NCBI GenBank assembly: GCA_002328165.1
Contig: DCWS01000012.1
Span: forward strand, 8,225 to 72,224
Direction of reading: 5' to 3'
Length of the DNA: 64,000 bases
DNA from: Desulfobacteraceae bacterium UBA2156
GTDB lineage: Bacteria > Desulfobacterota > Desulfobacteria > Desulfobacterales > UBA2156
Position 1 is the first letter of the stretch. Each line of letters starts with the position of its first letter. Positions 1,991 through 37,025 of the stretch are shown in pieces. The notes below the pieces were generated by a model. The model saw nothing but the letters and a program-made list of their open reading frames with translations, was not told where the DNA came from and searched no databases. Made by a program: the position numbers and the translations under genes.

Positions 1991-2060
1991 CTTTGGTTTT
2001 CCCGCATTTGTTACCGGTTGCAGCAAACAACAGACATTGAGCGTGTAGGCTCAGTTAGTT

Positions 2061-14360: not shown

Positions 14361-15449
14361 ATGGAGAGAAACAGGATATATAATTTCAATGCAGGGCCCG
14401 CTGCCCTTCCTTTTCCTGTTTTGGAAGAAATACAGGATTCGTTTTTCAATTTTGCAGGGTCCGGGATGTCGATTATCGAGATGAGTCACAGATCCAAATG
14501 GTTTCAAGATGTTATAGATGATGTCATCACAAGAATCAGGCGCATTCTAAAGCTTGACGAAAAATTTCATGTCCTTTTTCTCCAAGGGGGTGCCAGCATG
14601 CAATTTTGCATGATCCCTATGAATTTTTTAAATAGGGAAAACCTGGCAGATTACGTTAATACCGGAACCTGGTCAACAAAGGCGATTAAAGAGGCACGGA
14701 TACAACACAAACGCATAAAGGTGGTCGCTTCCTCGGAGGATAAAAATTTTTCTTATATCCCGGACAAAATTCAATTCAACAGTGATGCGGTCTACTGCCA
14801 TATCACATCAAACAATACCATTAAGGGAACTCAGTGGTCGTCGTTTCCGGATACAAAAGACGTGCCACTGATCGCAGACATGTCATCCGATATTTTTTGG
14901 AGATTCTTTGACGTGGAAAAATTCGGACTGATCTACGCCGGTGCTCAGAAAAATATGGGACCCGCAGGGGTGTGTATGGTCATTATTCGAGACGACATGC
15001 TCGAACGGATACCCGACCACCTGCCGACGATGCTCAAGTATACCACTTTTGCTGAAAAAAACTCGCTGTATAATACACCGCCCTGTTTTGGTATTTATGT
15101 GATCCAACTGGTGCTGAAGTGGTTGGAGGAAACCGTTGGCGGTATTAAAAAAATGGAAGGAATCAATCGCAAAAAGGCGGGGCTTTTATACAGAACAATA
15201 GATGAAAGCGGCTTTTACAAAGGCACGGCAATGCCTGAAAGCCGTTCGATGATGAACATTACTTTTCGGTTGCCCAATGAAGATTTGGAGGTGGCATTTG
15301 TCAAAAATGCCGTTGAAAGCGGCCTGGGTGGTCTCCAAGGACACCGATCCGTCGGCGGGTGCCGGGCATCGATTTACAATCCCACGTCCCTTGAGGCGGT
15401 TTCCGCCCTTGTCGATTTTATGGGAGCGTTTGAACAAAAACATGGATGA
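14361..15449 (+). CDS. serC: Phosphoserine aminotransferase
   Basis: From ORF 14331..15449. Start set at MERNRIYNFNAGPAALP with GGAGGA 5 nt upstream. 'GAQKNMGPAGV' carries the PLP lysine. Confidence 0.9.
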   Translation: MERNRIYNFNAGPAALPFPVLEEIQDSFFNFAGSGMSIIEMSHRSKWFQDVIDDVITRIRRILKLDEKFHVLFLQGGASMQFCMIPMNFLNRENLADYVNTGTWSTKAIKEARIQHKRIKVVASSEDKNFSYIPDKIQFNSDAVYCHITSNNTIKGTQWSSFPDTKDVPLIADMSSDIFWRFFDVEKFGLIYAGAQKNMGPAGVCMVIIRDDMLERIPDHLPTMLKYTTFAEKNSLYNTPPCFGIYVIQLVLKWLEETVGGIKKMEGINRKKAGLLYRTIDESGFYKGTAMPESRSMMNITFRLPNEDLEVAFVKNAVESGLGGLQGHRSVGGCRASIYNPTSLEAVSALVDFMGAFEQKHG

Positions 15450-22405: not shown

Positions 22406-23380
22406 ATGCACGCAACAAGAATAAAGACCAAAGCTGTCGGTTTGTTGTCCGGTGGACTCGACAGCACGCTTGCCGCAAAACTCATGCAGGAGCAGGGGGT
22501 TGAGGTATGCGCCGTCAACTTTACCTCCTCCTTTTGCACCTGTACGCCGAAGAAAGCAGGATGTGCGGCGGCTGTCACGGCCGTAAAAGGTCTGGGCGGC
22601 GTATCACTTAAGCAAATCGCGTTGCGCGATGAATATCTGGATATGGTGAAGCATCCGAAACACGGATATGGATCCCAGATGAATCCGTGTATCGACTGCA
22701 GGATCATGAAAATAAAAAAAGCAGGCGAATACATGAAAAAAATAGATGCAGATTTTATGTTTACCGGTGAAGTCCTGGGCCAGCGTCCCATGTCCCAACA
22801 CAAGCGGGCCATGCAGATGATCGCAGCAGAATCCGGTTTTCCGGAGTATCTTTTGCGACCCCTCTCGGCCGCACATTTTGAACCGACAGTTCCGGAGCTG
22901 GAAGGGTGGGTAGATAGGAATAAATTGTTGGCGATTACCGGGCGGTCAAGGAAAACTCAGATCTCCCTTGCCGCTGAGAAGGGTATTCGTGACTATCCCT
23001 GTCCGGCAGGCGGCTGTCTTTTGACCGACAAAAATTTTTCAGAGAGAATACGCGATTATTTTATTTTCACAAAAAACCCATCCATGGGAGATATCCCCCT
23101 TCTTAAAACAGGAAGGCATTTTCGACTGGAAAATGGCGACAAGGTGATTGTCGCACGCAATGAAAATGAATGCAACGTGTTGAGAAATCTCTGGATAGAG
23201 AGCGATCACTTCCTTGTTCCGTTTGACTTTTCCGGTCCCACCGTGATTCTTCAGGGAACCGATTTAAAGACCGCTCTCGGGAAACTGGTTGCATATACCA
23301 CGCCACCTGTTTGGGATACCGCCCGTGTTACCCACCGACATGGGGCAGAAAAAAAAATCATGTTCCTTGATGCGTTTTAA
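22406..23380 (+). CDS. PP-loop ATP pyrophosphatase, MnmA/ThiI-like tRNA sulfurtransferase paralogue (no THUMP domain)
   Basis: 'GLLSGGLDST' PP-loop at residue 12 and 'NPCIDCRIMK' (compare MnmA NPCxxCN). It lies directly upstream of mnmA. Confidence 0.6.
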   Translation: MHATRIKTKAVGLLSGGLDSTLAAKLMQEQGVEVCAVNFTSSFCTCTPKKAGCAAAVTAVKGLGGVSLKQIALRDEYLDMVKHPKHGYGSQMNPCIDCRIMKIKKAGEYMKKIDADFMFTGEVLGQRPMSQHKRAMQMIAAESGFPEYLLRPLSAAHFEPTVPELEGWVDRNKLLAITGRSRKTQISLAAEKGIRDYPCPAGGCLLTDKNFSERIRDYFIFTKNPSMGDIPLLKTGRHFRLENGDKVIVARNENECNVLRNLWIESDHFLVPFDFSGPTVILQGTDLKTALGKLVAYTTPPVWDTARVTHRHGAEKKIMFLDAF

Positions 23381-23381
23381 G

Positions 23382-24485
23382 ATGATAACATCGCGTAACA
23401 AAATAAAGATCGCCGTCGGGCTTAGCGGAGGGGTCGATTCTTCGGTTGCTGCGGTACTGCTCAAAGAAAAAGGCTATGACCTGATCGGTGTCACCATGGA
23501 AATATTTGATGGTTGTGGGGAACTCAAGGAGATTGGAAGACATGGATGTTATGGTCCGGGGGAAACAGAGGATGTTGAAACGGCTGCACGGATCTGCAAA
23601 AGACTCGACATTCCCTATTACACTTTCGACCTGAAAGAAGCGTACAGAAAGCATGTTATCGGATATTTCAAGCGTGAGTACCTTCTGGGGAGAACACCGA
23701 ATCCCTGCGTGGTGTGCAACCAAAGGATTAAATTTGGCTTTCTTTTGAAAAAGGCGATAGAAAAAGGAGTGGATTTTCAGTTTTTTGCCACCGGGCACTA
23801 TGCAAAGCTGACAAAAACCGGCGGAAGATTTCTGCTGAAAAAGGCTGAAGACCGGTCAAAAGACCAGACCTATTTTCTTTATCGGTTAACTCGAAAGCAG
23901 CTTTCCCGTACCCTCTTTCCCCTTGGCGAATACACCAAAGCCAAGGTCAGAAAAATTGCACGGTCCATGGAACTGGAAACAGCCTACGGGGCCGAAAGCC
24001 AGGACTTTGTCGCTAGAAATGACTATGCGGTTCTTTTCAACGAGGAAGAGGTGAAGAGCGGCGATATTGTGGATGAAAATTTAAATCTCCTGGGAAGGCA
24101 TCGAGGGATCATCCATTACACAATTGGGCAGCGGAGGGGATTGGGGATTGCATCGGACCGCCCACTCTATGTGACGAAAATTGACACCGAAAACAACAGG
24201 ATCGTTGTGGGTGACAGGGAGAATCTTTTTTCCAAAGGGTTGATCGCAAAGGACCTTAACCTGGTGGCCATTGATAGGCTTGACCGGCAGCATAAGATAG
24301 GGGCAAAGATCCGGTTGAACCATCAAGAGATTCCCGCCACGCTGTTTCCACACGGAAACGATAGGGCTAAAATACTATTTAACACCCCGCAGATGTCGGT
24401 AGCGCCCGGACAGTCAGCTGTCTTTTATAGGGGGGATACCGTGCTTGGCGGTGGCATTATTGAACGGGCACTTCGATCGAATTAA
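23382..24485 (+). CDS. mnmA: tRNA-specific 2-thiouridylase MnmA
   Basis: From ORF 23289..24485. Start set at MITSRNKIKIAVGLSGGVDSSV, 1 nt after the upstream stop. 'PNPCVVCNQRIKF' and 'KDQTYFLY' are present. Confidence 0.9.
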   Translation: MITSRNKIKIAVGLSGGVDSSVAAVLLKEKGYDLIGVTMEIFDGCGELKEIGRHGCYGPGETEDVETAARICKRLDIPYYTFDLKEAYRKHVIGYFKREYLLGRTPNPCVVCNQRIKFGFLLKKAIEKGVDFQFFATGHYAKLTKTGGRFLLKKAEDRSKDQTYFLYRLTRKQLSRTLFPLGEYTKAKVRKIARSMELETAYGAESQDFVARNDYAVLFNEEEVKSGDIVDENLNLLGRHRGIIHYTIGQRRGLGIASDRPLYVTKIDTENNRIVVGDRENLFSKGLIAKDLNLVAIDRLDRQHKIGAKIRLNHQEIPATLFPHGNDRAKILFNTPQMSVAPGQSAVFYRGDTVLGGGIIERALRSN

Positions 24486-24614: not shown

Positions 24615-24643
24615 TTGACATTCATACTACGTTGTGGTATTTT
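24615..24643 (+). promoter_or_regulatory. Candidate sigma70 promoter upstream of cysE
   Basis: TTGACA (24615-24620), a 17-nt spacer, then TATTTT (24638-24643) preceded by TGG (extended -10 like). Confidence 0.35.
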
Positions 24644-24723: not shown

Positions 24724-25758
24724 ATGACCGCTCCATCTTTAAAATCAAAGCAAGTTAAAAGGGATACCGCAACGGTAACCCGTTTTTATAAAACCGTCCC
24801 CAAGACCATGCAGCGGCTGTTAGTCCCATCTGAAGAAGATGCCCTGTCTTTCGAACACGTGGACATTACACCGATTGCGTCACAGGACTCGGTAATTGAG
24901 ATCATCCAACAGGCCAGACGCCTGATCTTTCCGGGATATTTCATCCAAACCCGGATGGATCCGATCAATTTGGAGCCTTTTTTGTGTCAGGAGGCGATGG
25001 CCCTTTTTAATCGGCTTTCACAACAGATTGTTTTGTCCATTCAGCATGAGTGCCTCCGTTTGGATATGCCCTGCTCGAAATGTCTGGAAAGTAGTCATGA
25101 AACCGCGTTTCAATTTATTCAATCGCTGCCTGATTTAAAGGTCATACTGACCGGAGACATCGATGCGGCTTTTGCGGGAGACCCTGCTGCAAAGAGTTAC
25201 GATGAAATTATTTTCAGTTATCCCGGGTTGTTCGCCATTACCGTCTACCGTCTGGCGCACAACCTCTATGAAATGGAGGTACCACTTTTGCCGCGAATGA
25301 TGACCGAATATGCCCATAGTCTCACCGGTATTGATATCCATCCCGGTGCAACAATCGGGCAGCGCTTTTTTATCGATCATGGCACCGGTGTGGTCGTGGG
25401 TGAAACCACGGAAATCGGAAACCGAGTGAGGATCTACCAGGGCGTGACTCTGGGTGCTTTATCCCTCCCGGCGGATAAGATCGATCAATTCAAGGATCAG
25501 AAGCGGCATCCCACCATCGGGGATGATGTGATTATCTATTCAAATGCGACTTTGTTGGGCGCGAAGGCAATTATAGGCGCCAGATCGATCATCGGTGGAA
25601 ACGTATGGATCACAGAAGGCGTTCCACAGGACACGAAAGTGGTGTTAAAAAAGCCGGAGTTGGTCTACATCGGGAATCATAATCGATCGGGTGATTTGAA
25701 ATCGGTTCATCAACAGAGCCGTCGTGGGGAAAAAGGGGGTGGAGATGAAATTTGTTGA
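24724..25758 (+). CDS. cysE: Serine O-acetyltransferase (long form)
   Basis: Hexapeptide-repeat core 'GIDIHPGATIGQRFFIDHGTGVVVGETTEIGNRVRIYQGVTLGA' with an N-terminal SATase-type helical region. Confidence 0.8.
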   Translation: MTAPSLKSKQVKRDTATVTRFYKTVPKTMQRLLVPSEEDALSFEHVDITPIASQDSVIEIIQQARRLIFPGYFIQTRMDPINLEPFLCQEAMALFNRLSQQIVLSIQHECLRLDMPCSKCLESSHETAFQFIQSLPDLKVILTGDIDAAFAGDPAAKSYDEIIFSYPGLFAITVYRLAHNLYEMEVPLLPRMMTEYAHSLTGIDIHPGATIGQRFFIDHGTGVVVGETTEIGNRVRIYQGVTLGALSLPADKIDQFKDQKRHPTIGDDVIIYSNATLLGAKAIIGARSIIGGNVWITEGVPQDTKVVLKKPELVYIGNHNRSGDLKSVHQQSRRGEKGGGDEIC

Positions 25759-25993
25759 GAAACAGCCAGCTGACGCCACTTTAGACCTGGTATGCCGTAT
25801 GTGTCCTCTCCATCTTTTGGAACCGGGTGACAGGCTAAAGTGCTTAAAAAAGGGGCAGGTCTTGGAAGTGCTGACCGATTATGACGGTGCCCTGGAAGAT
25901 ATTCCCAAGTGGTGTGAAAAGTGTGGGCAGGAATTTATCGGTGTAGAGGAAGACGAGGATTGTTACAAACTCTATATTCGAAAGGTTAAATGA
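25745..25993 (+). CDS. TusA/SirA-like sulfur carrier protein
   Basis: 'LDLVCRMCPLHLL...GQVLEVLTDYDGALEDIPKWCEKCGQEF' matches the TusA pattern (LDxxGxxCPxP ... DIPxW). The start is uncertain (25724 or 25745). It overlaps the end of cysE. Confidence 0.55.
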   Translation: MKFVEKQPADATLDLVCRMCPLHLLEPGDRLKCLKKGQVLEVLTDYDGALEDIPKWCEKCGQEFIGVEEDEDCYKLYIRKVK

Positions 25994-26004
25994 GGGAATT
26001 TGAT

Positions 26005-27180
26005 ATGAAGCGGGTTTATTTGGATCATGCCTCTGCCACGCCGATGAGGAGAGAAGTCATCGAAGCCATGCTTCCTTATTTTGACCAGCATTTTGGGAAT
26101 CCCTCGATGGTTTATGACATCGGTTCAAACGTCAAAGAGGTAATGGAGGAACAACGGCTAAAGATAGCAAAGCTCATTGGTGCAAACGCCGAAGAAATCA
26201 TTTTCACCTCATCTGGAGCTGAAGCCAACAATCTTGCGATCAAGGGCGTCGCTTTTGCCAGACAGAAAAAAGGGAAACATATCATCATTTCTGCCATTGA
26301 ACACCACTCGGTTCTCAACTCCGCTCGATTCTTCGAGCGCATGGATTTCGAGGTGACTCTCCTCCAAGTGGATGAACACGGCCTGGTGGACCCGGAACGT
26401 CTGTCTAAGGCGATAACGTCTGAAACGATTTTGGTATCCGTCATGCACGCAAACAATGAAATTGGAACCATCGAGCCGATTTCAGAACTTTCTGCCATAT
26501 GCAGATCAAAAGGAATTGTCTTTCATACCGATGCAGTTGCAACCGTTGGGAATATTCCGGTCGACGTCAATGAGCTGAATGTGGACCTATTGAGTTTTTC
26601 CGGTATTTCAATGGGGGCGCCTAAAGGAGTTGGGGCACTCTATTTCAGGGATAATTTAAGGCTGATGCCTTTAATTCACGGCGGTATCCAGGAAAAGGGG
26701 AGGCGGGGAGGAACCGAGAATATCCCAGGTATTGTCGGTTTAGGCAAGGCAGCTGAAATCATTTCAAAAGAACTGCCCGGCAAAGTGGCCCGCACGCGGA
26801 ACCTGAGGGACTTTTTAATCAAAGGCATCGGAGAACGGTTGGAATTTGTCAAATTGACCGGCCACCCGGACAAACGACTCCCAGGTCACGCCAGCTTTTG
26901 TGTTGAAGCGATCGAGGGAGAAGCCCTAACCTTTATGCTCAGTCAAGAGGGTATCTACGCAAATACCGGTTCCGCCTGTGCTTCAAAAGCCCTTAAAACA
27001 TCTCCGGTTCTGGTGGCCATCGGTGTTCGTCCGGAACTCGCCCAGGGCTCTGTCGTATTTACTCTCAATGGGAACCATGCGGTTGAAGAGTTGGAATATG
27101 TGCTGGAAAAATTTCAAGGTGATGTTGCAAAGCTTCGTGCACTTTCTCCCATTTGGATGGGAAAGGCGGCGACTAGATAA
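26005..27180 (+). CDS. IscS/NifS-family cysteine desulfurase homologue lacking the PLP-binding lysine
   Basis: Class V aminotransferase motifs are present ('SSGAEANN', 'AIEHHSV', 'MHANNEIGT', 'HTDAV') and the Cys loop 'TGSACAS' is retained. However, 'SFSGISMGAPKG' replaces the canonical 'SFSGHKxxGPKG'. Confidence 0.8.
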   Translation: MKRVYLDHASATPMRREVIEAMLPYFDQHFGNPSMVYDIGSNVKEVMEEQRLKIAKLIGANAEEIIFTSSGAEANNLAIKGVAFARQKKGKHIIISAIEHHSVLNSARFFERMDFEVTLLQVDEHGLVDPERLSKAITSETILVSVMHANNEIGTIEPISELSAICRSKGIVFHTDAVATVGNIPVDVNELNVDLLSFSGISMGAPKGVGALYFRDNLRLMPLIHGGIQEKGRRGGTENIPGIVGLGKAAEIISKELPGKVARTRNLRDFLIKGIGERLEFVKLTGHPDKRLPGHASFCVEAIEGEALTFMLSQEGIYANTGSACASKALKTSPVLVAIGVRPELAQGSVVFTLNGNHAVEELEYVLEKFQGDVAKLRALSPIWMGKAATR

Positions 27181-27193
27181 AAGGGGGTGAATC

Positions 27194-27562
27194 ATGTATT
27201 CAGAAAAAGTGATGGATCATTTCTCAAATCCGCGAAATGCTGGGAGCATCGAGGATGCCGACGGTATCGGCGAGATCGGCAACCCGGTCTGCGGTGACAT
27301 GATGACATTTTATATCAAGGTCAAAGATGATAAAATTTCCGAGATAAAATTCCAAACCTTCGGGTGTGTTGCCGCAATAGCTGTGTCGAGCATGGTTAGC
27401 GAGATGGCAGAAGGATGTACGTTAAAAGAAGCCAAAAAGATAAGCAACAAAAGCGTTGCATCCTCGCTTGACGGTCTTCCAAAGCAAAAGCTGCATTGCT
27501 CCAATCTTGGTGCTGATGCCCTCGCCAAGGCGATCCAGAATTATGAAAACAAAAATGTGTAA
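27194..27562 (+). CDS. iscU: Fe-S cluster scaffold protein (IscU / NifU N-terminal type)
   Basis: 122 aa with 'GNPVCGDMMTFYI', 'FQTFGCVAAIA' and 'LHCSNLGADAL', giving all three Cys ligands and the Asp. Confidence 0.85.
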   Translation: MYSEKVMDHFSNPRNAGSIEDADGIGEIGNPVCGDMMTFYIKVKDDKISEIKFQTFGCVAAIAVSSMVSEMAEGCTLKEAKKISNKSVASSLDGLPKQKLHCSNLGADALAKAIQNYENKNV

Positions 27563-27580: not shown

Positions 27581-28681
27581 ATGAAAGAAAATCTTACGAA
27601 CGGCGAACTGGAGACCTATTCCAGACAGGTCGTCCTGGCTGGCATCGGTTATAGTGGACAGTTGAAACTCAAAAACGCCAAGGTCTGTATCATCGGGATG
27701 GGTGGTCTGGGGACACAGATTGCTTTTAAACTGGTTGGAATGGGGATCGGCTACCTCCGTATGGTTGACAGGGATATCGTTTCACGATCAGATTTGCACC
27801 GACAGTACCTATACAATGTTGATGTTGTGGGACAACCAAAAGTCGAAGCCGCTTTACAAAAACTGAACCGCTTAAATCCAGATGTGGAGCTCGATCCGGT
27901 TCCGGAATCTATGAATTCATCCAATGCCAAAGCGTTGATAGATGGCGTGGACATCGTTCTTGACGGTCTGGACAGTCCCCAAACCCGTTACCTGGTAAAT
28001 CGAACCTGCAACCATTTCAAGATACCCTATGTCTTTGGTTCTGCCATTGAAGCTTTTGGAAATGTCTCTACCATCGTGCCGGATAAAACGTTCTGTCTGG
28101 AGTGTTTCATGCCGGGTTTAAAAGATGAGGACCTTCCGTCATGTGGTGTCGTCGGTGTTCATCCGTCTGTTTTGGGTTTGGTTACAGCGATTCAGGTTGC
28201 AGAGGCGGTGAGATTCTTGACCGGCAAGGACCCGAAGTTGCTCAATAAGCTTTTATATATCGACCTTCAAGAGTTGGCGTTCGATACCATTGACATCTCT
28301 TCCTCACAAAACTGCCCTGTATGCGGAATCAAACCTGCCGGACCGCCGGAACGTTTGACGGACAACCTATTTGTGGAAACATGCGCAAAGGATGGAATGA
28401 GAAATTTTATCATTTCCCCCAGGGAAAGGATTGAAATTGACATTGAACGTCTGGATGCTGTTCTAAAAGAAAAAAGTTTGTCTGTAAAAAGTTCCAGCCC
28501 TTTTGGGATTACTTTCGAGGTATCCGAAGGCGTGCAAGGTAGCTTGCTTAAAAGCGGCCTTATGATCGTGCAGACATCTCCAAAACCGAAAAACAATATA
28601 AAAGACGATCTCTTTACGGCATACAAATCTGTCCTTGTGGACGGATTGGGCTTATCCCCAAACATTTTGCCCGATGTCTGA
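27581..28681 (+). CDS. ThiF/MoeB/HesA-family E1-like adenylyltransferase with an extra ~115-aa C-terminal domain
   Basis: 'YSRQVVL', 'IIGMGGLGTQIA', 'RSDLHRQ', and Zn-site pairs 'CLEC' and 'CPVC'. Residues ~250-366 match no domain I recognise. Confidence 0.75.
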   Translation: MKENLTNGELETYSRQVVLAGIGYSGQLKLKNAKVCIIGMGGLGTQIAFKLVGMGIGYLRMVDRDIVSRSDLHRQYLYNVDVVGQPKVEAALQKLNRLNPDVELDPVPESMNSSNAKALIDGVDIVLDGLDSPQTRYLVNRTCNHFKIPYVFGSAIEAFGNVSTIVPDKTFCLECFMPGLKDEDLPSCGVVGVHPSVLGLVTAIQVAEAVRFLTGKDPKLLNKLLYIDLQELAFDTIDISSSQNCPVCGIKPAGPPERLTDNLFVETCAKDGMRNFIISPRERIEIDIERLDAVLKEKSLSVKSSSPFGITFEVSEGVQGSLLKSGLMIVQTSPKPKNNIKDDLFTAYKSVLVDGLGLSPNILPDV

Positions 28682-28694
28682 AAAAAACCCTTTT

Positions 28695-29534
28695 TCATTC
28701 TTCCACCTTGCTTTTCCGGTGTTGAATATACGCATCCCGGAGCGCCTCATAGGGATCAATTGCAGCTTCTTTCAAGGACTCGTAATCACCCAGTCGGAAG
28801 GAGGTATCGTTTACGATCCTGTAACCATAGATACCAACCGCGGCTTCAACCGGTTCCATATAGGAAAGTGGGTTGATGAAGCTGTCTCCAAGCAAACCCA
28901 CTGAATCGCGCAGGGTGGATGGGCCCAGAAAAGGCCAAACGATATACACACCCTCTCCGATTCCATAGACACCTAAGGTTTGACCCAGATCCTCCTCACT
29001 TGGTTTTAAACGAGGATATCTCTTTGCCGGATTTCCAAAGCCGAGAATACCGAAGATGCTGTTCAACAGAAACCGATCGATTTCCGCATGAGCAGATTGC
29101 CACTTTCCTTGGAGGATGCAATTGGCCAAACGAATGGGGGTGGTTAGGTTGGTGAAAAAATTACTGACGCCAATTCGGGCAAGTTCTGGAACTACTACCT
29201 TATATGTCTTTGTAACAGGCTTGAGTATCCAGAAGTAAAATTTGTCGTTGAAGTGAAACATCCCTTTGTTCCAGAGCGATAGAGGATCCGGAACAGAGAT
29301 CTCATCTTCATCTTCGTATTCATCATCGTCAAAACTATCAGGGTCGTCGTTTTGATCAGCCGCATCATCCTCTGCGGGATTTGTTGACAACATTGAATTT
29401 CCCGTAGAAGCCAGCAGGTTTTGAATTTGATGAAAGGATGGATCTGCAAGAGATGGCGGAGGGTTTTCAGGAACAAGGGCACATCCAATCATGAATGAGA
29501 AAAGAAAAGAAAAGAACACGATTTGATGTTTCAA
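28695..29534 (-). CDS. mlaA: MlaA/VacJ family outer-membrane lipoprotein
   Basis: Lipobox 'MIGCA', an acidic linker, and the VacJ core 'FNDKFYFWILKPV...VSNFFTNLTTPIRLANCILQGK...FLLNSIFGILGFGNPA'. Confidence 0.8.
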   Translation of the reverse strand: MKHQIVFFSFLFSFMIGCALVPENPPPSLADPSFHQIQNLLASTGNSMLSTNPAEDDAADQNDDPDSFDDDEYEDEDEISVPDPLSLWNKGMFHFNDKFYFWILKPVTKTYKVVVPELARIGVSNFFTNLTTPIRLANCILQGKWQSAHAEIDRFLLNSIFGILGFGNPAKRYPRLKPSEEDLGQTLGVYGIGEGVYIVWPFLGPSTLRDSVGLLGDSFINPLSYMEPVEAAVGIYGYRIVNDTSFRLGDYESLKEAAIDPYEALRDAYIQHRKSKVEE

Positions 29535-29605
29535 GGGATGTGACGCTCCTCATATCAATTATTAATTAGCAGGGATAGAAGCGATTTCTTTTTCCACCGA
29601 TTCTC

Positions 29606-30226
29606 TTATTGTTGTGCGGTTTTCTTTTTTTGCGCCTCATTTTTCTTTTTCAGACGTTCGATTAATTGATCGGGGGATACTTTTCGGAGGATTTTTTTGA
29701 ACTGGGTCCGGTAGTTTTTTACCAGTCCCACTCCCTCGATGATAACATCGTAGATCTTCCATTTTTTCCCGTGCAGACGCAGGTGGTAGTTCATCGGGAT
29801 TTTACCGTTTTCCCGGACGATTTCGGTTTTTACAATCGCCTTTTTATCTTTGATAATTGCCTCACCCAGATAGACCACCCTTTCATCATGGTACTCTCCC
29901 TGTACCTTGTTCAGATAAATGTTTCCGAGGAGTGTGGAAAAAACATCAGTAAACCGATCCCGTTGGCCGGAATTAAAGCGCTTCCAGTTGCGGGCCAGAG
30001 ATCGCTTGGACATCTCCCGAAAATCAAAGATCCCCCGTATGATCTTCCACAGTTCTTCCCGCTGGACCTCTTTTTTGTCTTTTTCACGGTATTGGGGGTC
30101 TTTTAGGATGCTGACGATTTCATTCATCGGTTTCTGCAGCGTTTCCATCGGCGGTGTGCCATGGACCAATGTCGTCATCCCGACAAGCATCAGAACCAGT
30201 GATAGCCCAAGCCATTTCGTGATCAT
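29606..30226 (-). CDS. mlaC: MlaC/Ttg2D periplasmic phospholipid-binding protein
   Basis: Signal peptide, then 'FDFREMSKRSLARNWKRF', 'YLNKVQGEY' and 'WKIYDVIIEGVGLVKNYRTQF'. Confidence 0.8.
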   Translation of the reverse strand: MITKWLGLSLVLMLVGMTTLVHGTPPMETLQKPMNEIVSILKDPQYREKDKKEVQREELWKIIRGIFDFREMSKRSLARNWKRFNSGQRDRFTDVFSTLLGNIYLNKVQGEYHDERVVYLGEAIIKDKKAIVKTEIVRENGKIPMNYHLRLHGKKWKIYDVIIEGVGLVKNYRTQFKKILRKVSPDQLIERLKKKNEAQKKKTAQQ

Positions 30227-30264
30227 TGAACCTCCTGTTGCTGTGTTACGGGTGGTTCGAGTTA

Positions 30265-30711
30265 TTAAACCCCGCCAAACACATATTTGCTGACCATCTC
30301 TTCCAAGTCAAGGGCGGACTCGGTTTCAGTTATCAGGTCTCCGGGTTTAAGAATCTCATCGGACCCACCCGACGAAAGTTTGATATACTTGTCTCCGATT
30401 AATCCGGCCGTTTTGACCGAGGCGATCACATCGTCGGTTAAAACCACTTCATTTTGTATTTTCATCTCAACAACGGCAATCTGCTTTTCGAGATCCAGTG
30501 AGATATCGGCAATATGGCCAATCTGAACCCCTGCCATTTCTATTTGGCCGCCTTTTCTGAGGCCGGTAATGGAATCGAAGTTGGCGAAGATAGAATAGTG
30601 ATTTTGGCCGATCCAATCCATTTGCCCCAGCTTGACGGTCAGGTATCCGACACATGCGATGCCGATCAAAACGAAAATACCGACACATGTATCAATGGTC
30701 GTTTTTTTCAT
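30265..30711 (-). CDS. mlaD: MlaD (MCE domain) protein
   Basis: From ORF 30265..30723. Start set at MKKTTIDTCVGIF with GGGAGG upstream. There is one TM segment and the MCE core 'GLRKGGQIEMAGVQIGHI'. Confidence 0.8.
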   Translation of the reverse strand: MKKTTIDTCVGIFVLIGIACVGYLTVKLGQMDWIGQNHYSIFANFDSITGLRKGGQIEMAGVQIGHIADISLDLEKQIAVVEMKIQNEVVLTDDVIASVKTAGLIGDKYIKLSSGGSDEILKPGDLITETESALDLEEMVSKYVFGGV

Positions 30712-30725
30712 AACGCCTCCCAAGC

Positions 30726-31940
30726 CTAACTAACAATGAACTCATAAAATGAATTCGTTATCGACTCTGCGCTGGCAAGCACATCGCCGATGGTTTTTTC
30801 TTTTTTTATCTCCTCATAGCCCGCGGTGACCGTAAAGCAGAATCCAGGATAGGGCTGAACCTCCAAAATTTCATTCCCCTTCAACTGGTCAGCCAATTTA
30901 GCGCAGAACATCCGGGCCTGTTTCAAGTTCGTGTTGGGGAGAATAACCATAATTTTATCCCGGCCTGCCCGGGAACAGGCGTCGGAAATACGGATGCGAT
31001 TCTTAACCTGTGTGGCAAAATTTATCAGTACGGTTTGAGCAGCGAGATGCCCCATTTCCCGAGAAATTTCATTTAGATTTTCCAATTTAAAAAGAACCAG
31101 GGAAAAGAAGGTGTTATGCCGGAGCATCCGAGCCACTTCTTCCCTGAACTTTTTTTCCATCTGGAGCTGGGTGGGCATTCCGGTCAGCCCGTCCTTTGGG
31201 GTGTCCAAACCCCGGATAAAATTCCGCACAACCGGATCCGAAGTATTACCGATTTCTTCCGGAGTTCCTTCAAAGACGATCCGGCCCTCATTCAACATGG
31301 CGATCCGTTGTGAAATGTAGAAAATATCCGGTATCTCATGGCTGACCATCACGCCGGTAAATCCAAACTTTTTCTGATAATCGGAAATCATGTGGTGCAC
31401 GGTTGTTTTGCGGATCGGGTCGAGGCCGGTGGTCGGTTCGTCAAAAAGGATAATCTCCGGATCCGTGACCAGCGCCCTTGCCAGGGCGATCCTTTTTTTC
31501 ATCCCCCCTGAGACCTCGGAAGGAAATTTGTGGTCAATCCTACCCAGGTCGAGCTGTTTCATTCTTTTCTTTACTCGCTGGTGAACCGCCTGTTCGGAAA
31601 ATGCTCCCCTCTCCCTCAAGGGGAGTGCGATATTATCAAAAATATCCAGCGAATCGAAAAGAGCCGTACTCTGGAACAGGTAACTGAATTTATGTTTCAG
31701 CTTCCTTTTCGCACGGTTATTCATCTCGGAAAGCGTCTTTCCACGAAAAAGGATTTTGCCTGAATCCGGCTCGATGAGACCGATGATGTGTTTGAGCAGG
31801 ACGCTCTTCCCCACCCCGCTTTTCCCGATGATGGTGGAAATCTCCCCCTGAAAAATACTGAGATCGGTTCCTTGCAAAACAGGCTGGCCACCAAATTTCT
31901 TAAAGACATTTTGAAATTGAATCAGTGGTTGTTTCATCAT
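30726..31940 (-). CDS. mlaF: MlaF-type ABC ATPase fused to a C-terminal degenerate GGDEF domain
   Basis: Residues 1-245 carry Walker A 'GKSGVGKS', signature 'VSGGMKKR', Walker B 'ILFDEPTTGLD' and H-loop 'VSHE'. Residues ~250-404 are colinear with the GGDEF fold (see the domain feature). Confidence 0.8.
   Translation of the reverse strand: MMKQPLIQFQNVFKKFGGQPVLQGTDLSIFQGEISTIIGKSGVGKSVLLKHIIGLIEPDSGKILFRGKTLSEMNNRAKRKLKHKFSYLFQSTALFDSLDIFDNIALPLRERGAFSEQAVHQRVKKRMKQLDLGRIDHKFPSEVSGGMKKRIALARALVTDPEIILFDEPTTGLDPIRKTTVHHMISDYQKKFGFTGVMVSHEIPDIFYISQRIAMLNEGRIVFEGTPEEIGNTSDPVVRNFIRGLDTPKDGLTGMPTQLQMEKKFREEVARMLRHNTFFSLVLFKLENLNEISREMGHLAAQTVLINFATQVKNRIRISDACSRAGRDKIMVILPNTNLKQARMFCAKLADQLKGNEILEVQPYPGFCFTVTAGYEEIKKEKTIGDVLASAESITNSFYEFIVS
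30729..31193 (-). other. Degenerate GGDEF-like domain of MlaF (A-site lost, RxxD I-site retained)
   Basis: 'DGLTGMPT', 'FSLVLFKLENLNEISREMGHLAAQTVL' and 'RISDACSRAGRDKIMVILPNT' align with the canonical 'DxLTGLxNR', 'DxDxFKxxNDxxGHxxGDxxL' and 'RxxDxxxRxGG(D/E)EFxxxLP'. RISD is at 30981-30992 and GRDKI at 30951-30965. Confidence 0.65.
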
Positions 31941-31943
31941 CTC

Positions 31944-32741
31944 TTACAGAAAAAAGGATGTCAATATATAATCGACTATAAGGATTAGGACACAGGAAGT
32001 CACCACGGCGGCGGTTGTCGCACTGCTAACCCCCTCAGCGCCGAATTTCGCCCGGGTGTGGGTAAAAAACCCCTGAAAACAGCATACCGTGACAACCACG
32101 GCGCCAAAAACAATCGATTTGATGAAACCGCTGGCAATGTCCTCCATTAAAACAGCGGATTCAACCCTGAAAAAATAAGTGCCGGGATTGATGCCGAGCA
32201 AAACCGAACCGCTGACATACCCGCCGAAAATGCCCACCACGTTAAAAAGGGCGGTCAATAAGGGAAAACTGATCACCGCAGCAGCGAACCTGGGGCTGAC
32301 CAGATACCGTATCGGGTTGATGTCCATGGTTTCGAGGGCATCGATCTGTTCGGAGATTCTCATGATTCCAATTTCCGCGGCTATGGACGACCCGGCTCTT
32401 GCAATCACCATAATTGCAGTCATCACCGGCCCCATTTCGCGGATCAGCGAAAGGGCCACGGCCGCACCGAGCAACCCCTCAGAGCCAAATTGCACCAGGG
32501 TGTAATATCCCTGGAATCCAAGTACCATTCCCGTGAATGTACCGGTCAAAATGATGACGAAAATCGATTTCGTCCCAATAAAATAAATCTGTTGAACGGT
32601 CTTTACAATCTGCAAGGGAAAAGAAAAAATATAGAAAAAGCCCTGAAAAAAAAAGACAGCAACACTTCCAAGCTCTCGAATTTTTAAGACGGTCAGTCTA
32701 CCCAGAGTGGACAAGGAATTTTTCAATATTACAAAGTTCAT
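31944..32741 (-). CDS. mlaE: MlaE ABC permease
   Basis: 265-aa polytopic protein with 'REMGPVMTAIMVIARAGSSIAAEIGIMRISEQIDALETM', diagnostic of the MlaE/Ttg2B family. Confidence 0.85.
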   Translation of the reverse strand: MNFVILKNSLSTLGRLTVLKIRELGSVAVFFFQGFFYIFSFPLQIVKTVQQIYFIGTKSIFVIILTGTFTGMVLGFQGYYTLVQFGSEGLLGAAVALSLIREMGPVMTAIMVIARAGSSIAAEIGIMRISEQIDALETMDINPIRYLVSPRFAAAVISFPLLTALFNVVGIFGGYVSGSVLLGINPGTYFFRVESAVLMEDIASGFIKSIVFGAVVVTVCCFQGFFTHTRAKFGAEGVSSATTAAVVTSCVLILIVDYILTSFFL

Positions 32742-33117: not shown

Positions 33118-34581
33118 ATGAGAACAAACTATCGAATCAATTCAGGGATACGATTCAACGTGTTGTCAAAAGATCAATTGCAGGCCTTATTTGATGGCGT
33201 GCTTCACCTTCTGGAGTACACCGGTCTTGACGTACATCACGAAGAGGCGCGTGACATTCTCCAGAAATCCGGCGCAACAATAGAAGGTCTCAGAGTACGC
33301 ATACCTGCCTATCTGGTGAAACGCGCTTTGCAGATGGCACCCCGGAGCTTCACCATCTTTGCACGCGATGGAAATCCCGATCACGATATTCACATCGGCC
33401 CAGGCCGGGCATACTTTGGTCCGGGCCCGACCCCCCCTAATTTCATTGATGTAGAGACCCTGGAGCGACGACCCTTCCTAAAATCCGATGCACGCATTGT
33501 AGCAAAAGTGGTGGATGCCCTTCCAAACATCGATTTTTGTGAGTCGCTGGGTACGATCAGTGACGTTCAATTTGAACTGGCAGCCAGCTATGAATTTGCA
33601 GAAATGTTTCCCAATACTAGTAAACCGATCGTGGCCTGGTCCTACGGGTGGGACGATTCGGAGGACATCCATAAAATCGCCGTTGCCGAGGCAGGGGGGC
33701 AGGAGGCATTTGAAAAACGTCCCAACTATATCCATTACTGTGAACCGCTGTCACCGCTGGTGAGTACATTCGAGGCGGTTGACAAACTCATTTTTGCGGT
33801 CAGACATCGGGTACCTCTGATATTTACCCCGTGTCCCTTGGCCGGAGGGACTGCACCGGTGACAGCGGCCGGCATCATCATCCAGTCAACGGCCGAATCA
33901 TGGATGGGGCTGGTTCTTTCCCAGACCATCCAACCCGGCATCCCTTTTTTCATGGGAGGGGTTCTATCGGTAATGGATATGAGTGACATGATACTTTCCT
34001 ATGGTGCACCCGAACTGTCCCTGATGATGGCCGGCAGTACCGAATTGGCCCATTACGCCGGTATCCCTCTTTGGCAAACAGGGGGCTGCACTGATTCTAA
34101 AGTGCTCGACGAACAGGCTGCGCTCGAAGGCTCACTTTCTTGCTTTTTTTCTGCACTGACAGGCGGCGATCTGTGCCACGACGTTGGATACACCGAGAGC
34201 GGAATGACTGGCTCTATTTTACAAACAGCAATGATGGACGAAGCAATCGGCTATTCGCGCCGTATAACACGGGGTATCGATGTTAACGACGAAACATTAG
34301 CCACCAACGTCATCCATAAGGTCGGTCCCAATGGGCACTATTTGTATGAAAAACACACGCGCCGACATTTCAAGAGTGAGTACTGGTACCCCAATCTATG
34401 TGATCGGCACAGTTTTGAGGAGTGGGAAAAGAAGGGACGTACAACCATGCGCGATAGGGTCATTACGCGGGTTCAAGACATCCTGGGCACTCATCAAACC
34501 TCTCCCATTAAACCGGACACAGAGGCGGCGATCAGGGAGGTTCTGGAAGCAGCTGAAGACCGGGTTAAGAAATCCGCCTAG
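33118..34581 (+). CDS. MttB-superfamily methyltransferase, non-pyrrolysine type (quaternary-amine:corrinoid methyltransferase candidate), paralogue 1
   Basis: 487 aa. The N-terminal 'LSKDQLQALFDGVLHLLEYTGLDVHHEEARDILQKSGA' and the overall length are typical of the MttB family. The ORF is uninterrupted with no in-frame TAG. Confidence 0.8.
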   Translation: MRTNYRINSGIRFNVLSKDQLQALFDGVLHLLEYTGLDVHHEEARDILQKSGATIEGLRVRIPAYLVKRALQMAPRSFTIFARDGNPDHDIHIGPGRAYFGPGPTPPNFIDVETLERRPFLKSDARIVAKVVDALPNIDFCESLGTISDVQFELAASYEFAEMFPNTSKPIVAWSYGWDDSEDIHKIAVAEAGGQEAFEKRPNYIHYCEPLSPLVSTFEAVDKLIFAVRHRVPLIFTPCPLAGGTAPVTAAGIIIQSTAESWMGLVLSQTIQPGIPFFMGGVLSVMDMSDMILSYGAPELSLMMAGSTELAHYAGIPLWQTGGCTDSKVLDEQAALEGSLSCFFSALTGGDLCHDVGYTESGMTGSILQTAMMDEAIGYSRRITRGIDVNDETLATNVIHKVGPNGHYLYEKHTRRHFKSEYWYPNLCDRHSFEEWEKKGRTTMRDRVITRVQDILGTHQTSPIKPDTEAAIREVLEAAEDRVKKSA

Positions 34582-34618
34582 GGGCCTGTATCGGACTCGA
34601 ATCAAAAGGAGAATTACA

Positions 34619-35260
34619 ATGAGTACAATTTATCAGCAATTGTCAACGTCCATCATTGATGGAGATGAAGAGAAGACTCCCGAGTTAGTCCGGAAAGCAT
34701 TGGATCAGGGATTGGCACCCGTAGAAATCCTGGACAATGGGCTTCTTCTTGGAATGAACAAAGTGAGCCGCCGATTCGAACAAGAGGAAATGTTTGTACC
34801 CGAAGTGCTGTTGGCGGCCAAAGCTATGCATGACGGTCTAGAAGTGTTACGACCCCATCTGATTGCTACCGGAACCAAGCCGATCGGTAGGATTGTTCTG
34901 GGCACCGTAAAAGGCGACATCCACGATATCGGTAAAAACTTGGTCGGCATGATGTGCGAAGGTGCTGGCTTTGAAGTGATTAATCTGGGCTTTGATGTAG
35001 ACCCCGAGAAATTTATAGAGGCTGTCAAGGAAAATCAGCCGGATATCATTGGCATGTCAGCGATGCTGACCACAACGATGATCACCATGGGTTATACCAT
35101 TAAAGCCTTAAAAGAAGCGAATCTGCGCGATTCGGTAAAAGTGATCGTTGGTGGTGCTCCCGTCGATTCCGAAACTGTCGAGCGGATCGGCGCTGATGGG
35201 TATGCCTACAATGGACCCACTGCGGTTAAATTGGTAAAGCGTCTATTAGACGTGGCCTAG
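34619..35260 (+). CDS. Cobalamin-binding corrinoid protein (MtgC/MttC-like)
   Basis: Start set at MSTIYQQ (AAAGGAGAA upstream). The ORF-track start 34331 is an in-frame extension. It has a B12-binding-2 cap helix region, 'GDIHDIGKN' (DxHxxG), 'MSAMLTTTM' and 'VGGAPV'. Confidence 0.85.
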   Translation: MSTIYQQLSTSIIDGDEEKTPELVRKALDQGLAPVEILDNGLLLGMNKVSRRFEQEEMFVPEVLLAAKAMHDGLEVLRPHLIATGTKPIGRIVLGTVKGDIHDIGKNLVGMMCEGAGFEVINLGFDVDPEKFIEAVKENQPDIIGMSAMLTTTMITMGYTIKALKEANLRDSVKVIVGGAPVDSETVERIGADGYAYNGPTAVKLVKRLLDVA

Positions 35261-35522: not shown

Positions 35523-37025
35523 ATGCAAGTACACAGGACGAATTATCAGATAAACGAAACGCCAACGCTCCAAGTACTTACCGAAGATCAGATCGAAGCT
35601 ATCTATTATGCTGCTCTACGGGTGTTATATGAAACAGGGGTTCGCGTATATGACAAAGAAGGCGTTGAAGTTGCCTATTCCGGTGGCGCAATTGTGGAGG
35701 ATAAAACCGATGAGAGTCACTTGGTGCAAATTCCGCATTGGCTGGTAGAAAAGGCGCGGGTCACCGTGCCGAGCAAGGTAGTTCTCGCTGGATTCGACCG
35801 AAAGTACCGTATGGAACTTTACAAAAACCAGATCTATTTTGGAGGTGGCTCAGACACACCGTTTACCCTTGATCCTTACACAGGAAAACGGCGACGTACT
35901 ACGTACCGAGATGTGAAAAATATTGCTCGGCTGGCGCAGGCGTTACCCAACTTAAACTTCCACATGTCCTTGGGGATTACCCAGGACACCGCTGTAAGTA
36001 CATACGACCGCTGGCAATATTTGGCCATGGTAGAGGGGACCAGCAAGCCGATCAATGTCACCGCTGTAGACGCCGAAGGCCTGGGTGATATCCTTGAAAT
36101 GGCTCACATCCTGGTGGGCGGTAAGGAAGAGTGGCGGAAAGGCCCGACATTTTCAATTTATATCGAGCCTGTATCGCCGTTGAGCCACACTAAAGAGGTC
36201 GTGCAAAAGCTTCTGTTTGCCACCGACAACGACATTCCCTGTGTCTATACGCCCTGTCCACTTGCCGGTGCGACGGCACCAACCACTTTGGCTGGTTTAC
36301 TGGTACAATCCCTGGCTGAAAGCCTGTTCGGTATTGTGATCAGCCAGATACGAAAACCAGGGGCTCAGATCATCATCGGCGGTTTGATGTCAAACATGGA
36401 TATGAAAACCGCCACCTATACATACGGCTCCCCGGAGATGGCCCTGATGAGCGCTGGTTACACCGATATCACCAAATGGCTGCGAGTGCCGATGTATGAA
36501 ACAGCCGGATGCTCCGATGCCAAGCTTTTCGACGAGCAATCGGTGATGGAGGCGACGATCAACATCTCCACCGCCGCTCTCATCGGTGGCAACATGATTC
36601 ATGATGTGGGTTATCTTGACTCGGGCTTGACCAGCTCAATGGAGCAGATGGTCGCTGCCGACGAAATCATTGATATGGTGAAGCGCATTTTGCGGGGCAT
36701 TCCTGTGAACGACGATACAATGGCCCTGGATGTGATGGGTGCTGTTGGCCCGAGTGGCCATTTTATGGAACACAATCACACCTACAACCACTTTAAGAAC
36801 GAAATTTGGCGGCCAAAGCTGATTGATCGTCAAAATTGGGAGGACTGGACCCACTGCGGAAGCAAACGTTACGGCGAACGGGTCCACGATCGGGTGATCA
36901 AAATACTGGAGACCGAAACAGAGCCCCTCCTGAACGAAGCAACTTACAAGGAGCTGAGCCGCATCTGTGAACTGGCCGATACTCGTCACAAAGACGAAGA
37001 GCTCGATGTAAAGATGTTTGTGTAG
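35523..37025 (+). CDS. MttB-superfamily methyltransferase, non-pyrrolysine type, paralogue 2
   Basis: 500 aa and colinear with paralogue 1 ('LTEDQIEAIYYAALRVLYETGV', 'YTPCPLAGATAP', 'HDVGYLDSG'). No in-frame TAG. Confidence 0.8.
   Translation: MQVHRTNYQINETPTLQVLTEDQIEAIYYAALRVLYETGVRVYDKEGVEVAYSGGAIVEDKTDESHLVQIPHWLVEKARVTVPSKVVLAGFDRKYRMELYKNQIYFGGGSDTPFTLDPYTGKRRRTTYRDVKNIARLAQALPNLNFHMSLGITQDTAVSTYDRWQYLAMVEGTSKPINVTAVDAEGLGDILEMAHILVGGKEEWRKGPTFSIYIEPVSPLSHTKEVVQKLLFATDNDIPCVYTPCPLAGATAPTTLAGLLVQSLAESLFGIVISQIRKPGAQIIIGGLMSNMDMKTATYTYGSPEMALMSAGYTDITKWLRVPMYETAGCSDAKLFDEQSVMEATINISTAALIGGNMIHDVGYLDSGLTSSMEQMVAADEIIDMVKRILRGIPVNDDTMALDVMGAVGPSGHFMEHNHTYNHFKNEIWRPKLIDRQNWEDWTHCGSKRYGERVHDRVIKILETETEPLLNEATYKELSRICELADTRHKDEELDVKMFV

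Follow-up and report, generated by a model that had tools for sequence, protein, structure and literature searches.

A lysine-less IscS homologue encoded between TusA and IscU in a Desulfobacterales genome, a candidate persulfide adaptor

In Escherichia coli IscS, Lys206 holds pyridoxal 5'-phosphate (PLP) as an internal aldimine, and activity is lost in the variants K206A and Q183E (PMC9978102). The IscS of the archaeon Archaeoglobus fulgidus (IscS2, AF_0564; PDB 4hvk, 4eb5, 4r5f) lacks this lysine. It has no desulfurase activity (PMC7585200; PMC8918507), yet with IscU it assembles into a complex, (IscS-IscU)2, whose [2Fe-2S] cluster has a cysteine of IscS among its ligands (PMC8918507). Its crystals hold non-covalent pyridoxamine 5'-phosphate (PMP), PLP has been modelled in the IscS-IscU complex, and the back-mutant D199K still binds PMP with no restoration of activity (PMC8918507). 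A review lists the sulfur source of A. fulgidus IscS-IscU as an open question (PMC8918507). Methanosarcina acetivorans IscS1 has also been reported to be without the catalytic lysine (PMC7585200; PMC13066941). Here we describe a bacterial counterpart, encoded in 64,000 nucleotides from Desulfobacteraceae bacterium UBA2156 (assembly GCA_002328165.1, contig DCWS01000012.1, positions 8,225 to 72,224; hereafter the window). The protein, IscS*, is a homologue of type-I cysteine desulfurases without the PLP Schiff-base lysine, and its gene has that of a TusA-family sulfur carrier on one side and that of an IscU scaffold on the other. The genomic linkage of lysine-less IscS with TusA or DsrE-family carriers, seen far beyond the window, is the main new result. 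In the literature covered, which does not extend to the 2019 TusA review by Tanabe, Leimkuhler, and Dahl, no description was found of lysine-less IscS in bacteria or of its link to TusA/DsrE, though an earlier report may exist.

A. fulgidus IscS2-IscU is the closest resemblance to IscS* and the only lysine-less member studied biochemically. The two share the fold, the replacement of the lysine, Ala for Gln183, a substitution of His205, Leu or Val for Arg354 (E. coli numbering throughout), and the retained cysteine loop. In both genomes IscU is encoded directly downstream and a carrier of the DsrE/TusA family directly upstream. The archaeal changes, read from a sequence reconstructed from the PDB alignment, are Q183A, H205N, K206D, and R354L. 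The two proteins differ in that they are only ~45% identical, the archaeon has Asp at the lysine position where the bacterium has Ser, Thr76 is kept in the archaeon and lost in IscS*, and the upstream carrier is DsrE there and TusA in the window. They also fall into separate lysine-less clades in neighbour-joining trees, and A. fulgidus IscS2 has been characterised by biochemistry, whereas the clade of the window is known from sequence alone. A preliminary description of the locus had taken A. fulgidus IscS as precedent. The missing lysine, the shared substituted positions, and the near-identical fold justify the comparison, but the accompanying statement that the archaeal protein binds no PLP does not agree with the PMP in its crystals and the PLP modelled in its complex with IscU (PMC8918507).

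Other systems resemble the locus in part. In a crystal complex from E. coli, Cys19 of TusA lies ~4 A from Cys328 of IscS, and sulfur flows from IscS to TusA (PMC2854127). This hub (PDB 3lvj, 3lvl) has the same three proteins, the same fold, and a mobile loop bearing Cys328, within reach of IscU as well as of the TusA cysteine, with similar clients, such as ThiF/MoeB-type pathways, MnmA, ThiI, and FdhD (PMC2854127). E. coli IscS, however, is a PLP-dependent source of sulfur, whereas the PLP chemistry of IscS* appears to be disabled and a flow in the opposite direction is proposed. The E. coli tusA gene is outside the isc operon region retrieved, while tusA of the window is 11 nucleotides from iscS* and, to judge from this spacing, coupled to it in translation. 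Unlike the E. coli ISC cluster, that of the window has no hscBA, fdx, or iscA among the genes at 22-29 kb and does not qualify as an ISC system, and its IscU carries LPKQK instead of the LPPVK chaperone motif.

The gene content seems rather to fit the MIS system (MisS-MisU), which has been called the least studied iron-sulfur (Fe-S) machinery (PMC13066941). MIS too is a pair of S and U genes that lacks chaperones and carriers (hscBA, fdx, iscA), with a single-domain scaffold of the IscU type, and is found in anaerobes and archaea; the review describing it mentions neither lysine-less members nor TusA/DsrE partners (PMC13066941). MisS as described is taken to be a cysteine desulfurase, whereas IscS* is lysine-less and encoded beside TusA.

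In Allochromatium vinosum, the relay Rhd-TusA-DsrEFH-DsrC feeds dissimilatory sulfur oxidation (DsrC/DsrAB). The carriers considered here are linked instead to an IscS-like/IscU biosynthetic module, and the gene cluster of the window showed no dsr genes. In sulfur oxidisers, TusA and DsrE-family carriers are described as passing sulfane sulfur between conserved cysteines (PMC3397948).

The gene and the positions of its product that bear on catalysis are the following.

26005..27180, forward strand: iscS*, type-I cysteine-desulfurase homologue without the PLP Schiff-base lysine, 391 residues (PF00266 and PDB matches)
26218..26220, forward strand: Ala72 (GCT), replacing Thr76, a contact to the PLP phosphate
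26539..26541, forward strand: Ala179 (GCA), replacing Gln183, hydrogen-bonded to O3' of PLP; within HTDAVATVG
26605..26610, forward strand: Ile201-Ser202 (ATT TCA), replacing His205-Lys206; opposite HK of 9wep and E. coli IscS
26965..26985, forward strand: mobile cysteine loop TGSACAS, kept; Cys325 (codon 26977-26979) is E. coli Cys328
27055..27057, forward strand: Val351 (GTA), replacing Arg354, which positions the substrate carboxylate or Cys-aldimine

The start at 26005 has a GAGGGA Shine-Dalgarno sequence 7 nucleotides upstream and gives a length in agreement with homologues of 390-391 residues; the alternative in-frame ATG at 25990 would overlap the stop codon of tusA. The earlier claim that IscS* is colinear with class V desulfurases and keeps their cysteine loop holds over the full length of the protein. 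It matches PF00266 (Aminotran_5) at 1.5e-76, and its matches to PDB entries span residues 2-384. Desulfurases of known structure align with it over the whole length: 9wep (5e-121), A. fulgidus IscS2 (4eb5, 1e-103), E. coli IscS (1.6e-88), and human NFS1 (7e-87). The nearest NCBIfam models are NifS (TIGR03402) and IscS (TIGR02006), and IscS* falls below the equivalog cut-offs of both (473.4 against 530.75 and 380.7 against 643.2).

Active-site positions were mapped onto E. coli IscS (from NC_000913) by HMMER pairwise and MAFFT alignments. HMMER sets SFSGIS-M-GAPKG of IscS* opposite SFSAHK-M-YGPKG, and in the Schiff-base column neither alignment places a lysine or offers an alternative one. The codons ATT TCA differ from CAT AAA at 4 of 6 nucleotides. 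The Ile-Ser replacement and the missing Gln of HxDAxQ had both been recognised in the preliminary description, which understated the case, having missed the changes from Arg354 to Val and from Thr76 to Ala. His104, Asn155, Asp180, Ser203, Thr243, and Cys328 are kept. Thus of the features of a desulfurase, the cysteine on a long mobile loop is present, and His205/Lys206, Gln183, and Arg354 are not. Because the Schiff-base lysine, Gln183, Arg354, and Thr76 are all replaced, we infer that IscS* makes no persulfide from L-cysteine, and cysteine desulfuration by the canonical mechanism is very unlikely. Judged by these residues, IscS* lacks what defines a cysteine desulfurase catalytically, and it ought not to be annotated as such. 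This need not mean that its pocket is empty. Since His104, Asn155, Asp180, and Thr243 are invariant among its relatives (see below), the pocket may still hold a B6 vitamer as a non-covalent ligand, and "PLP-independent," applied to IscS*, means "no Schiff base" and does not mean "no cofactor."

The protein is not unusual within its lineage. Relatives (cluster representatives) numbered in the thousands in a word-indexed search of proteins, and the best 120, at 75-98% identity to IscS*, are intact and without the lysine in 120 of 120 cases, reading G-[V/I/P/A/L]-S at the His-Lys position and preserving HTDAVA, SSGAEANN, and TGSACAS. Their named sources are metagenome-assembled genomes (MAGs) of Desulfobacterales, Desulfobacteraceae, or Desulfobulbaceae and marine sediment. 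Since the relatives are Desulfobacterales MAGs, the sulfide-rich lifestyle that had been suggested for the organism is plausible. Comparison with L081, a 97%-identical relative of identical synteny, gives ratios of nonsynonymous to synonymous substitution (dN/dS) of 0.13 for iscS* and 0.05 for tusA; those of six other genes lie between 0.15 and 0.38. An AlphaFold2 model of IscS* is confident (mean pLDDT 91.5, pTM 0.90), with pLDDT below 50 only at residues 324-329, that is, in the cysteine loop, as expected for the mobile loop of type I. Foldseek aligns the model with NFS1, A. fulgidus IscS, and E. coli IscS at TM scores of 0.92-0.96; superposed on A. fulgidus IscS (4hvk) it gives a root-mean-square deviation of 1.6 A and a TM score of 0.97 (target-normalised). 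IscS* probably keeps the dimeric fold as well as the long mobile loop. The gene is intact, its product is predicted to fold, and it is under purifying selection. Because the trait is shared by all 120 close homologues and dN/dS is 0.13, we agree with the preliminary description that it belongs to the lineage and is not a mark of decay.

Nor is the trait confined to this lineage. When relatives were clustered at 50%, 19 of the 150 best representatives lacked the lysine, and most of the 19 also lacked Gln183 and Arg354. The residue in place of the lysine varies (S, Q, T, R, G, A, L, D, P, and others). A further comparison used 80 loci from GTDB species genomes, 21 lysine-less and 59 canonical. 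Their proteins were aligned with the query, E. coli IscS, 9wep, and a second IscS copy from one locus (L065), giving 84 sequences, 22 lysine-less and 62 canonical. Position 183 is Ala in 22/22 lysine-less sequences and Gln in 62/62 canonical ones; position 354 is Val or Leu in 22/22 and Arg in 61/62. Position 76 is less strict, with Ala in 12 of the 22 lysine-less sequences and Thr or Ser in all 62 canonical ones. Neither group shows any variation at His104, Asn155, Asp180, Thr243, or Cys328; Ser203 is replaced by Ala in 10 of the 22. The cysteine of the loop is also present in 20 of 20 diverse lysine-less proteins. Lysine-less IscS thus has a fixed signature (lysine lost, Q183A, R354V/L, cysteine loop kept), and it is common in anaerobic bacteria as well as in archaea.

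How often did the signature arise? Neighbour-joining trees were built with the signature columns removed and 100 bootstraps, a method whose deep topology is unreliable. In them, the query and A. fulgidus belong to separate clades, and Fitch parsimony counts about 8 changes between lysine and non-lysine (4-13 in the 100 bootstraps). A single recent origin of lysine-less forms therefore seems unlikely. At L065 (Ca. Psychracetigena formicireducens), a tandem IscS/NifS pair lies upstream of IscU, with lysine in both copies and Val for Arg354 in one; the Val354 copy may be an intermediate toward the lysine-less signature.

Lysine-less and canonical genes differ in their neighbours. Within 3 kb of the gene, TusA and/or a DsrE-family protein is encoded at 13 of the 21 lysine-less GTDB loci and at 0 of the 59 canonical loci (Fisher p=6.5e-10). 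A permissive TusA hidden Markov model added one case, 4 kb from a canonical gene. As an independent sample, metagenome contigs were scanned with a profile built from diverse lysine-less proteins, giving 15 lysine-less and 65 canonical loci; a TusA/DsrE gene is adjacent in 6/15 and 0/65, respectively (p=1.7e-5), although many of the lysine-less contigs are just 2-5 kb long. The contrast is also seen inside phyla: in Desulfobacterota (Desulfobacterales against Desulfatiglans and Syntrophales), in Chloroflexota (Anaerolineae, with IscS*-IscU-x-DrsE_2-TusA, against Dehalococcoidia), and in Nitrospirota. Two lysine-less cluster representatives examined individually have no carrier nearby. IscU is the most frequent neighbour and adjoins the gene in most lysine-less loci.

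Closest to the window are seven loci at 64-77% identity (L001-L007, from Desulfobacterales, 'Ca. Desulfatibia', and one MAG labelled Desulfohalobiaceae). TusA, IscS*, and IscU are present in 7/7, in that order in 6/7; in L003, TusA is 3 kb downstream of IscU. TusA is directly upstream of IscS* also in L081, L092, L093, and L094. Two of these, both Desulfobacterales at 77% identity, extend the module: L092 reads TusA-IscS*-IscU-MOSC-FdhD-NadA with an Rrf2 gene upstream, and L093 has the same order with the Rrf2 gene between IscS* and IscU and with DrsE_2 downstream. Other lysine-less loci recombine the same parts, in L082 (bacterium BMS3Abin14) as IscS*-DrsE_2-TusA, in L086 (an A. fulgidus-type protein) as TusA-IscS*, in L089 (Latescibacterota) as ThiS-MoaE-IscS*-TusA-Mrp-ThiI-like, in L090 as DsrE-IscS*-IscU, and in L091 as Rrf2-IscS*-IscU-DsrE. 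No IscU gene was called nearby in L082, L086, or L089. ThiF or ThiS genes lie near lysine-less IscS in L090 and in L174, the locus of A. fulgidus itself. In the A. fulgidus genome (AE000782.1), a DsrE-family gene directly precedes IscS2 and IscU follows it, and 3-8 kb upstream are ThiS-ThiF-TusA-DsrE-TusA-Pyr_redox_2, a PP-loop ATPase, and FdhD. One gene set thus recurs around lysine-less IscS from Archaeoglobus to Desulfobacterales.

The Pyr_redox_2 flavoprotein of A. fulgidus (L174, 2099-3241, forward strand) has a counterpart, FCSD/SQR-like, upstream in L093 (7304-8557, reverse strand). The two are candidates for an enzyme that generates or reduces sulfane sulfur borne by TusA/DsrE.

In the window, the genes around iscS* are these.

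22406..23380, forward strand: ThiI-like PP-loop ATPase with an NFACT-R_2 domain, 324 residues (PF02568, PF03054, PF18297)
23397..24485, forward strand: MnmA tRNA 2-thiouridine synthase (NF001138, 388 bits, cut-off 284)
24724..25758, forward strand: cysE, serine O-acetyltransferase-like, 344 residues (NF041874 EpsC, 153.7 against a cut-off of 150; TIGR01172, 166, below its cut-off of 210.65)
25745..25993, forward strand: tusA, TusA-family sulfur carrier, 82 residues, from ATG 25745 (the listed reading frame begins at GTG 25724) (PF01206, 3.7e-16)
27194..27562, forward strand: iscU, IscU or clostridial-type NifU scaffold, 122 residues (PF01592, 1.6e-47; TIGR03419, 189.6, cut-off 187.9)
27581..28681, forward strand: thiF, ThiF/MoeB-family E1-like adenylyltransferase, 366 residues (PF00899, 1.6e-65)

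The matches to PF01206 and to NifU_N (PF01592) uphold the placement of iscS* between a tusA-like gene and iscU. Because the start of tusA overlaps the end of cysE and the gaps that follow are short (11 nucleotides from tusA to iscS*, 13 from iscS* to iscU, 18 from iscU to thiF), the run cysE-tusA-iscS*-iscU-thiF suggests one operon. Among promoter-like sites, just one stands out, with 10/12 matching positions at 24615-24643, in the gap between mnmA and cysE. TusA of the window scores 59.2 bits against PF01206 (cut-off 28.6), and its RMCPLH and TDYDGALEDIP align with C19, D45, and D51 of E. coli TusA, all of them kept; the TusA of PDB 3lvj_C also matches. A double CxxC in this TusA was considered as a metal or Fe-S site and dropped, the first (VCRMCP) being conserved only in the Desulfobacterales clade and the second not even there. 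The translated IscU shows the ligand motifs Cys-Gly-Asp, Gly-Cys, and His-Cys.

The preliminary description had found the adjacency of cysE puzzling. It seems instead to be a juxtaposition. CysE, MnmA, and ThiF were not found beside IscS* in L001-L007, nor was CysE called in L092 or L093, and cysE adjoins iscS* only in the lineage of the window (the window and L081). Canonical loci, on the other hand, including those of nifS, typically have CysE upstream and/or MnmA downstream in place of the carriers. Neither cysE nor mnmA was therefore retained as a member of the module, and the position of cysE needs no special explanation, as genes of sulfur assimilation seem simply to have been grouped in this lineage.

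What might such a protein do? The reading we prefer, to which we give an even chance in its full form, is that IscS* is a selectively maintained, PLP-dead persulfide adaptor, passing sulfur from TusA through Cys325 to IscU or other clients. Sulfane sulfur from inorganic or low-molecular-weight sources would be carried as a persulfide of TusA (in other lineages, of a DsrE-family protein with or without TusA) and would be transferred to Cys325 on the mobile loop, the reverse of the transfer from IscS to TusA in E. coli. The loop would then hand the sulfur on to IscU. There it may also become a ligand of the [2Fe-2S] cluster being assembled, as the cysteine of A. fulgidus IscS does. Other possible clients are encoded nearby, the ThiF/MoeB-type E1 in the window and FdhD, MOSC, and NadA in its relatives. 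Since TusA/DsrE genes are linked to lysine-less copies only, relayed sulfane sulfur would be the source rather than, or besides, free sulfide. A wider reading, which we hold more tentatively and place somewhat below an even chance, is that lysine-less IscS paralogues in general are persulfide adaptors and not passive scaffolds, defining a widespread cysteine-independent entry of sulfur that anaerobes, bacterial and archaeal, have repeatedly gained or kept. On this wider scale, a DsrE/TusA relay, possibly fed by the nearby Pyr_redox_2 flavoprotein or by thiosulfate or polysulfide, would load the cysteine loop, and the loop would supply IscU, FdhD, MOSC, and ThiF/MoeB-type clients.

Several considerations weigh against the adaptor. 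The counts behind the association are not phylogenetically independent (L001-L007 are one clade). In several lysine-less lineages, Desulfomonilales (L047 and L071) among them, TusA/DsrE is absent up to a distance of 10 kb, and P0124 and P0127 have none in the 4-6 kb examined, so that a carrier is not obligatory. The residues of E. coli IscS that contact TusA (Trp45, Glu49, Asp52, Arg237) are not specifically conserved in lysine-less proteins. Where the cytoplasm is sulfidic and reducing, TusA could acquire a persulfide only with the help of an oxidant or an enzyme, and none was identified in the window. The direction of transfer is one that we infer, for a bacterial clade represented so far by sequences. 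The invariance of His104, Asn155, Asp180, and Thr243 suggests that the B6 pocket is still used (compare PMP in A. fulgidus IscS). Finally, a scan for promoters and terminators gave counts at chance level, so that spacing is what argues for the operon. Conservation of the TusA-binding surface, it may be added, proved uninformative as a test; acidic residues at position 49 are no more than weakly enriched in lysine-less proteins.

The strongest competitor is the idea of the preliminary description, that IscS* is a scaffold partner of the A. fulgidus type and sulfide is used directly. IscS* would never be persulfidated but would stabilise IscU, with Cys325 as the fourth ligand and free sulfide, plentiful in a sulfate reducer, as the source, and TusA would serve other pathways, such as tRNA thiolation or the molybdenum cofactor. 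The idea remains a live rival, as A. fulgidus IscS2, for which the model was proposed, shares both the substituted positions and the fold, and IscU adjoins most lysine-less genes. In anaerobic E. coli, moreover, IscS can be dispensed with if sulfide is supplied, and the SMS system is fed by sulfide (PMC13015791, PMC12192291; review PMC13066941). The model is especially viable for those lysine-less lineages without TusA/DsrE nearby. What it ignores is the strongest comparative signal, the linkage of TusA/DsrE to lysine-less copies only, A. fulgidus included. It also leaves unexplained the clusters of IscS* with TusA/DsrE but without a called IscU (L082, L086, L089) and the grouping of known persulfide acceptors, such as FdhD, with the module. 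We consider it rather unlikely, though well ahead of those that follow.

Perhaps instead the polarity is as in E. coli, where sulfur runs from IscS to TusA (PMC2854127), with IscS* loaded by another route and passing sulfur to TusA, or perhaps IscS* is an adaptor mainly for thio-cofactor synthesis or tRNA thiolation (ThiF/MoeB, MnmA, ThiI-like, FdhD) and not for IscU. Genes for ThiI-like, MnmA, and ThiF proteins do flank the module in the window, and L089 has ThiS, MoaE, and ThiI-like genes by IscS*-TusA with no IscU called nearby. But with the PLP chemistry gone, we can assign IscS* no activity that would load it with sulfur, its commonest neighbour is IscU, and MnmA and CysE are not conserved beside the module in close relatives. 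This reading strikes us as improbable.

More improbable still is that IscS* remains an enzyme, using non-covalent PLP or PMP for a different or slower reaction, for example on a carrier-bound substrate. PMP-dependent dehydratases (ColD/E1) lack the Schiff-base lysine, and His104, Asn155, Asp180, Ser203, and Thr243 are kept in IscS*, all but Ser203 being invariant across lysine-less proteins. PMP is present, too, in the crystals of A. fulgidus IscS (PMC8918507). However, the residue replacing the lysine varies among lineages, which provides no substitute catalytic base, and none of the aligned lysine-less sequences retains Gln183 or Arg354; because of this, residual B6-dependent activity is unlikely, and the failure of A. 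fulgidus D199K to regain activity while keeping PMP points the same way (PMC8918507). A decaying pseudogene or assembly artefact, which the loss of the hallmark lysine and the scores below NCBIfam cut-offs might suggest, was dropped as having a negligible chance, refuted by the intact reading frame, the 120 homologues that share the trait, the dN/dS, the invariant cysteine loop, the confident fold prediction, and the conserved synteny.

Some features of the surrounding proteins deserve mention in their own right. The architecture of the ThiI-like protein, with the RNA-binding domain NFACT-R_2 and no rhodanese domain, recurs beside IscS*-TusA in the unrelated lineage of L089 (6677-7717), and a ThiI-like homologue is beside IscS*-TusA in the metagenome contig L160; a ThiI-like/NFACT-R_2 protein also adjoins canonical IscS-MnmA in L038 and L041. 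MnmA of the window, compared by BLASTP with that of E. coli, has Cys-x-x-Cys (NPCVVCN) in place of Asp99-x-x-Cys102 and no cysteine at the position of Cys199 (a gap, SQD--FVA). MnmA of the CxxC type is said, from work by Shigi and colleagues in 2020, to depend on a [4Fe-4S] cluster, with a third cysteine near position 199. In the window MnmA, the third ligand may come from elsewhere, for example from the N-terminal DGCGELKEIGRHGC. The cysE-like protein has an N-terminal extension (residues 1-140) without a family match. The E1-like protein matches MoeB (PDB 1jw9, 6e-40) over residues 5-249 only; the ~110 residues of its C-terminal extension (about 255-366) match nothing in Pfam or PDB and are not a rhodanese. 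No ThiS/MoaD-like gene is among the reading frames and called genes listed for the window cluster.

No other cysteine desulfurase was found in the 22 reading frames of the window scanned against Pfam; the remaining frames were covered only by phmmer with IscS* as query, which recovered IscS* alone and missed SerC. That protein (14331-15449, forward strand), the second PF00266 member of the window, was considered as a desulfurase and rejected, being SerC with its lysine intact (NF003764, 496 bits; PDB 1w3u, 1e-120). Downstream of thiF is an Mla operon (28695-32741; MlaA-MlaC-MlaD-[ABC+GGDEF]-MlaE), whose MlaF-like ABC ATPase (30726-31940, reverse strand) is fused to GGDEF, according to Pfam matches of the 97%-identical L081, an unusual architecture. 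Elsewhere in the window a corrinoid set (38-2026, reverse strand; 33118-34581, 34331-35260, and 35523-37025, forward strand) comprises two uninterrupted reading frames for MttB-family methyltransferases, a B12-binding corrinoid protein, and a RACo-type reductive activator. The set suggests corrinoid-dependent methyl transfer in a putative sulfate reducer, with a methyl donor that we take to be possibly a quaternary amine such as glycine betaine.

The signature of lysine-less IscS has a practical consequence. Proteins that bear it, though annotated as cysteine desulfurases, should not be counted as cysteine-dependent sources of sulfur, a simple rule for annotators whenever the metabolism of sulfate reducers, Anaerolineae, Nitrospirota, or other such groups is reconstructed. 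Beyond annotation, a cysteine-independent route of sulfur into Fe-S cluster assembly becomes a concrete hypothesis, testable with three small recombinant proteins. If true, it would answer how A. fulgidus IscS-IscU obtains its sulfur.

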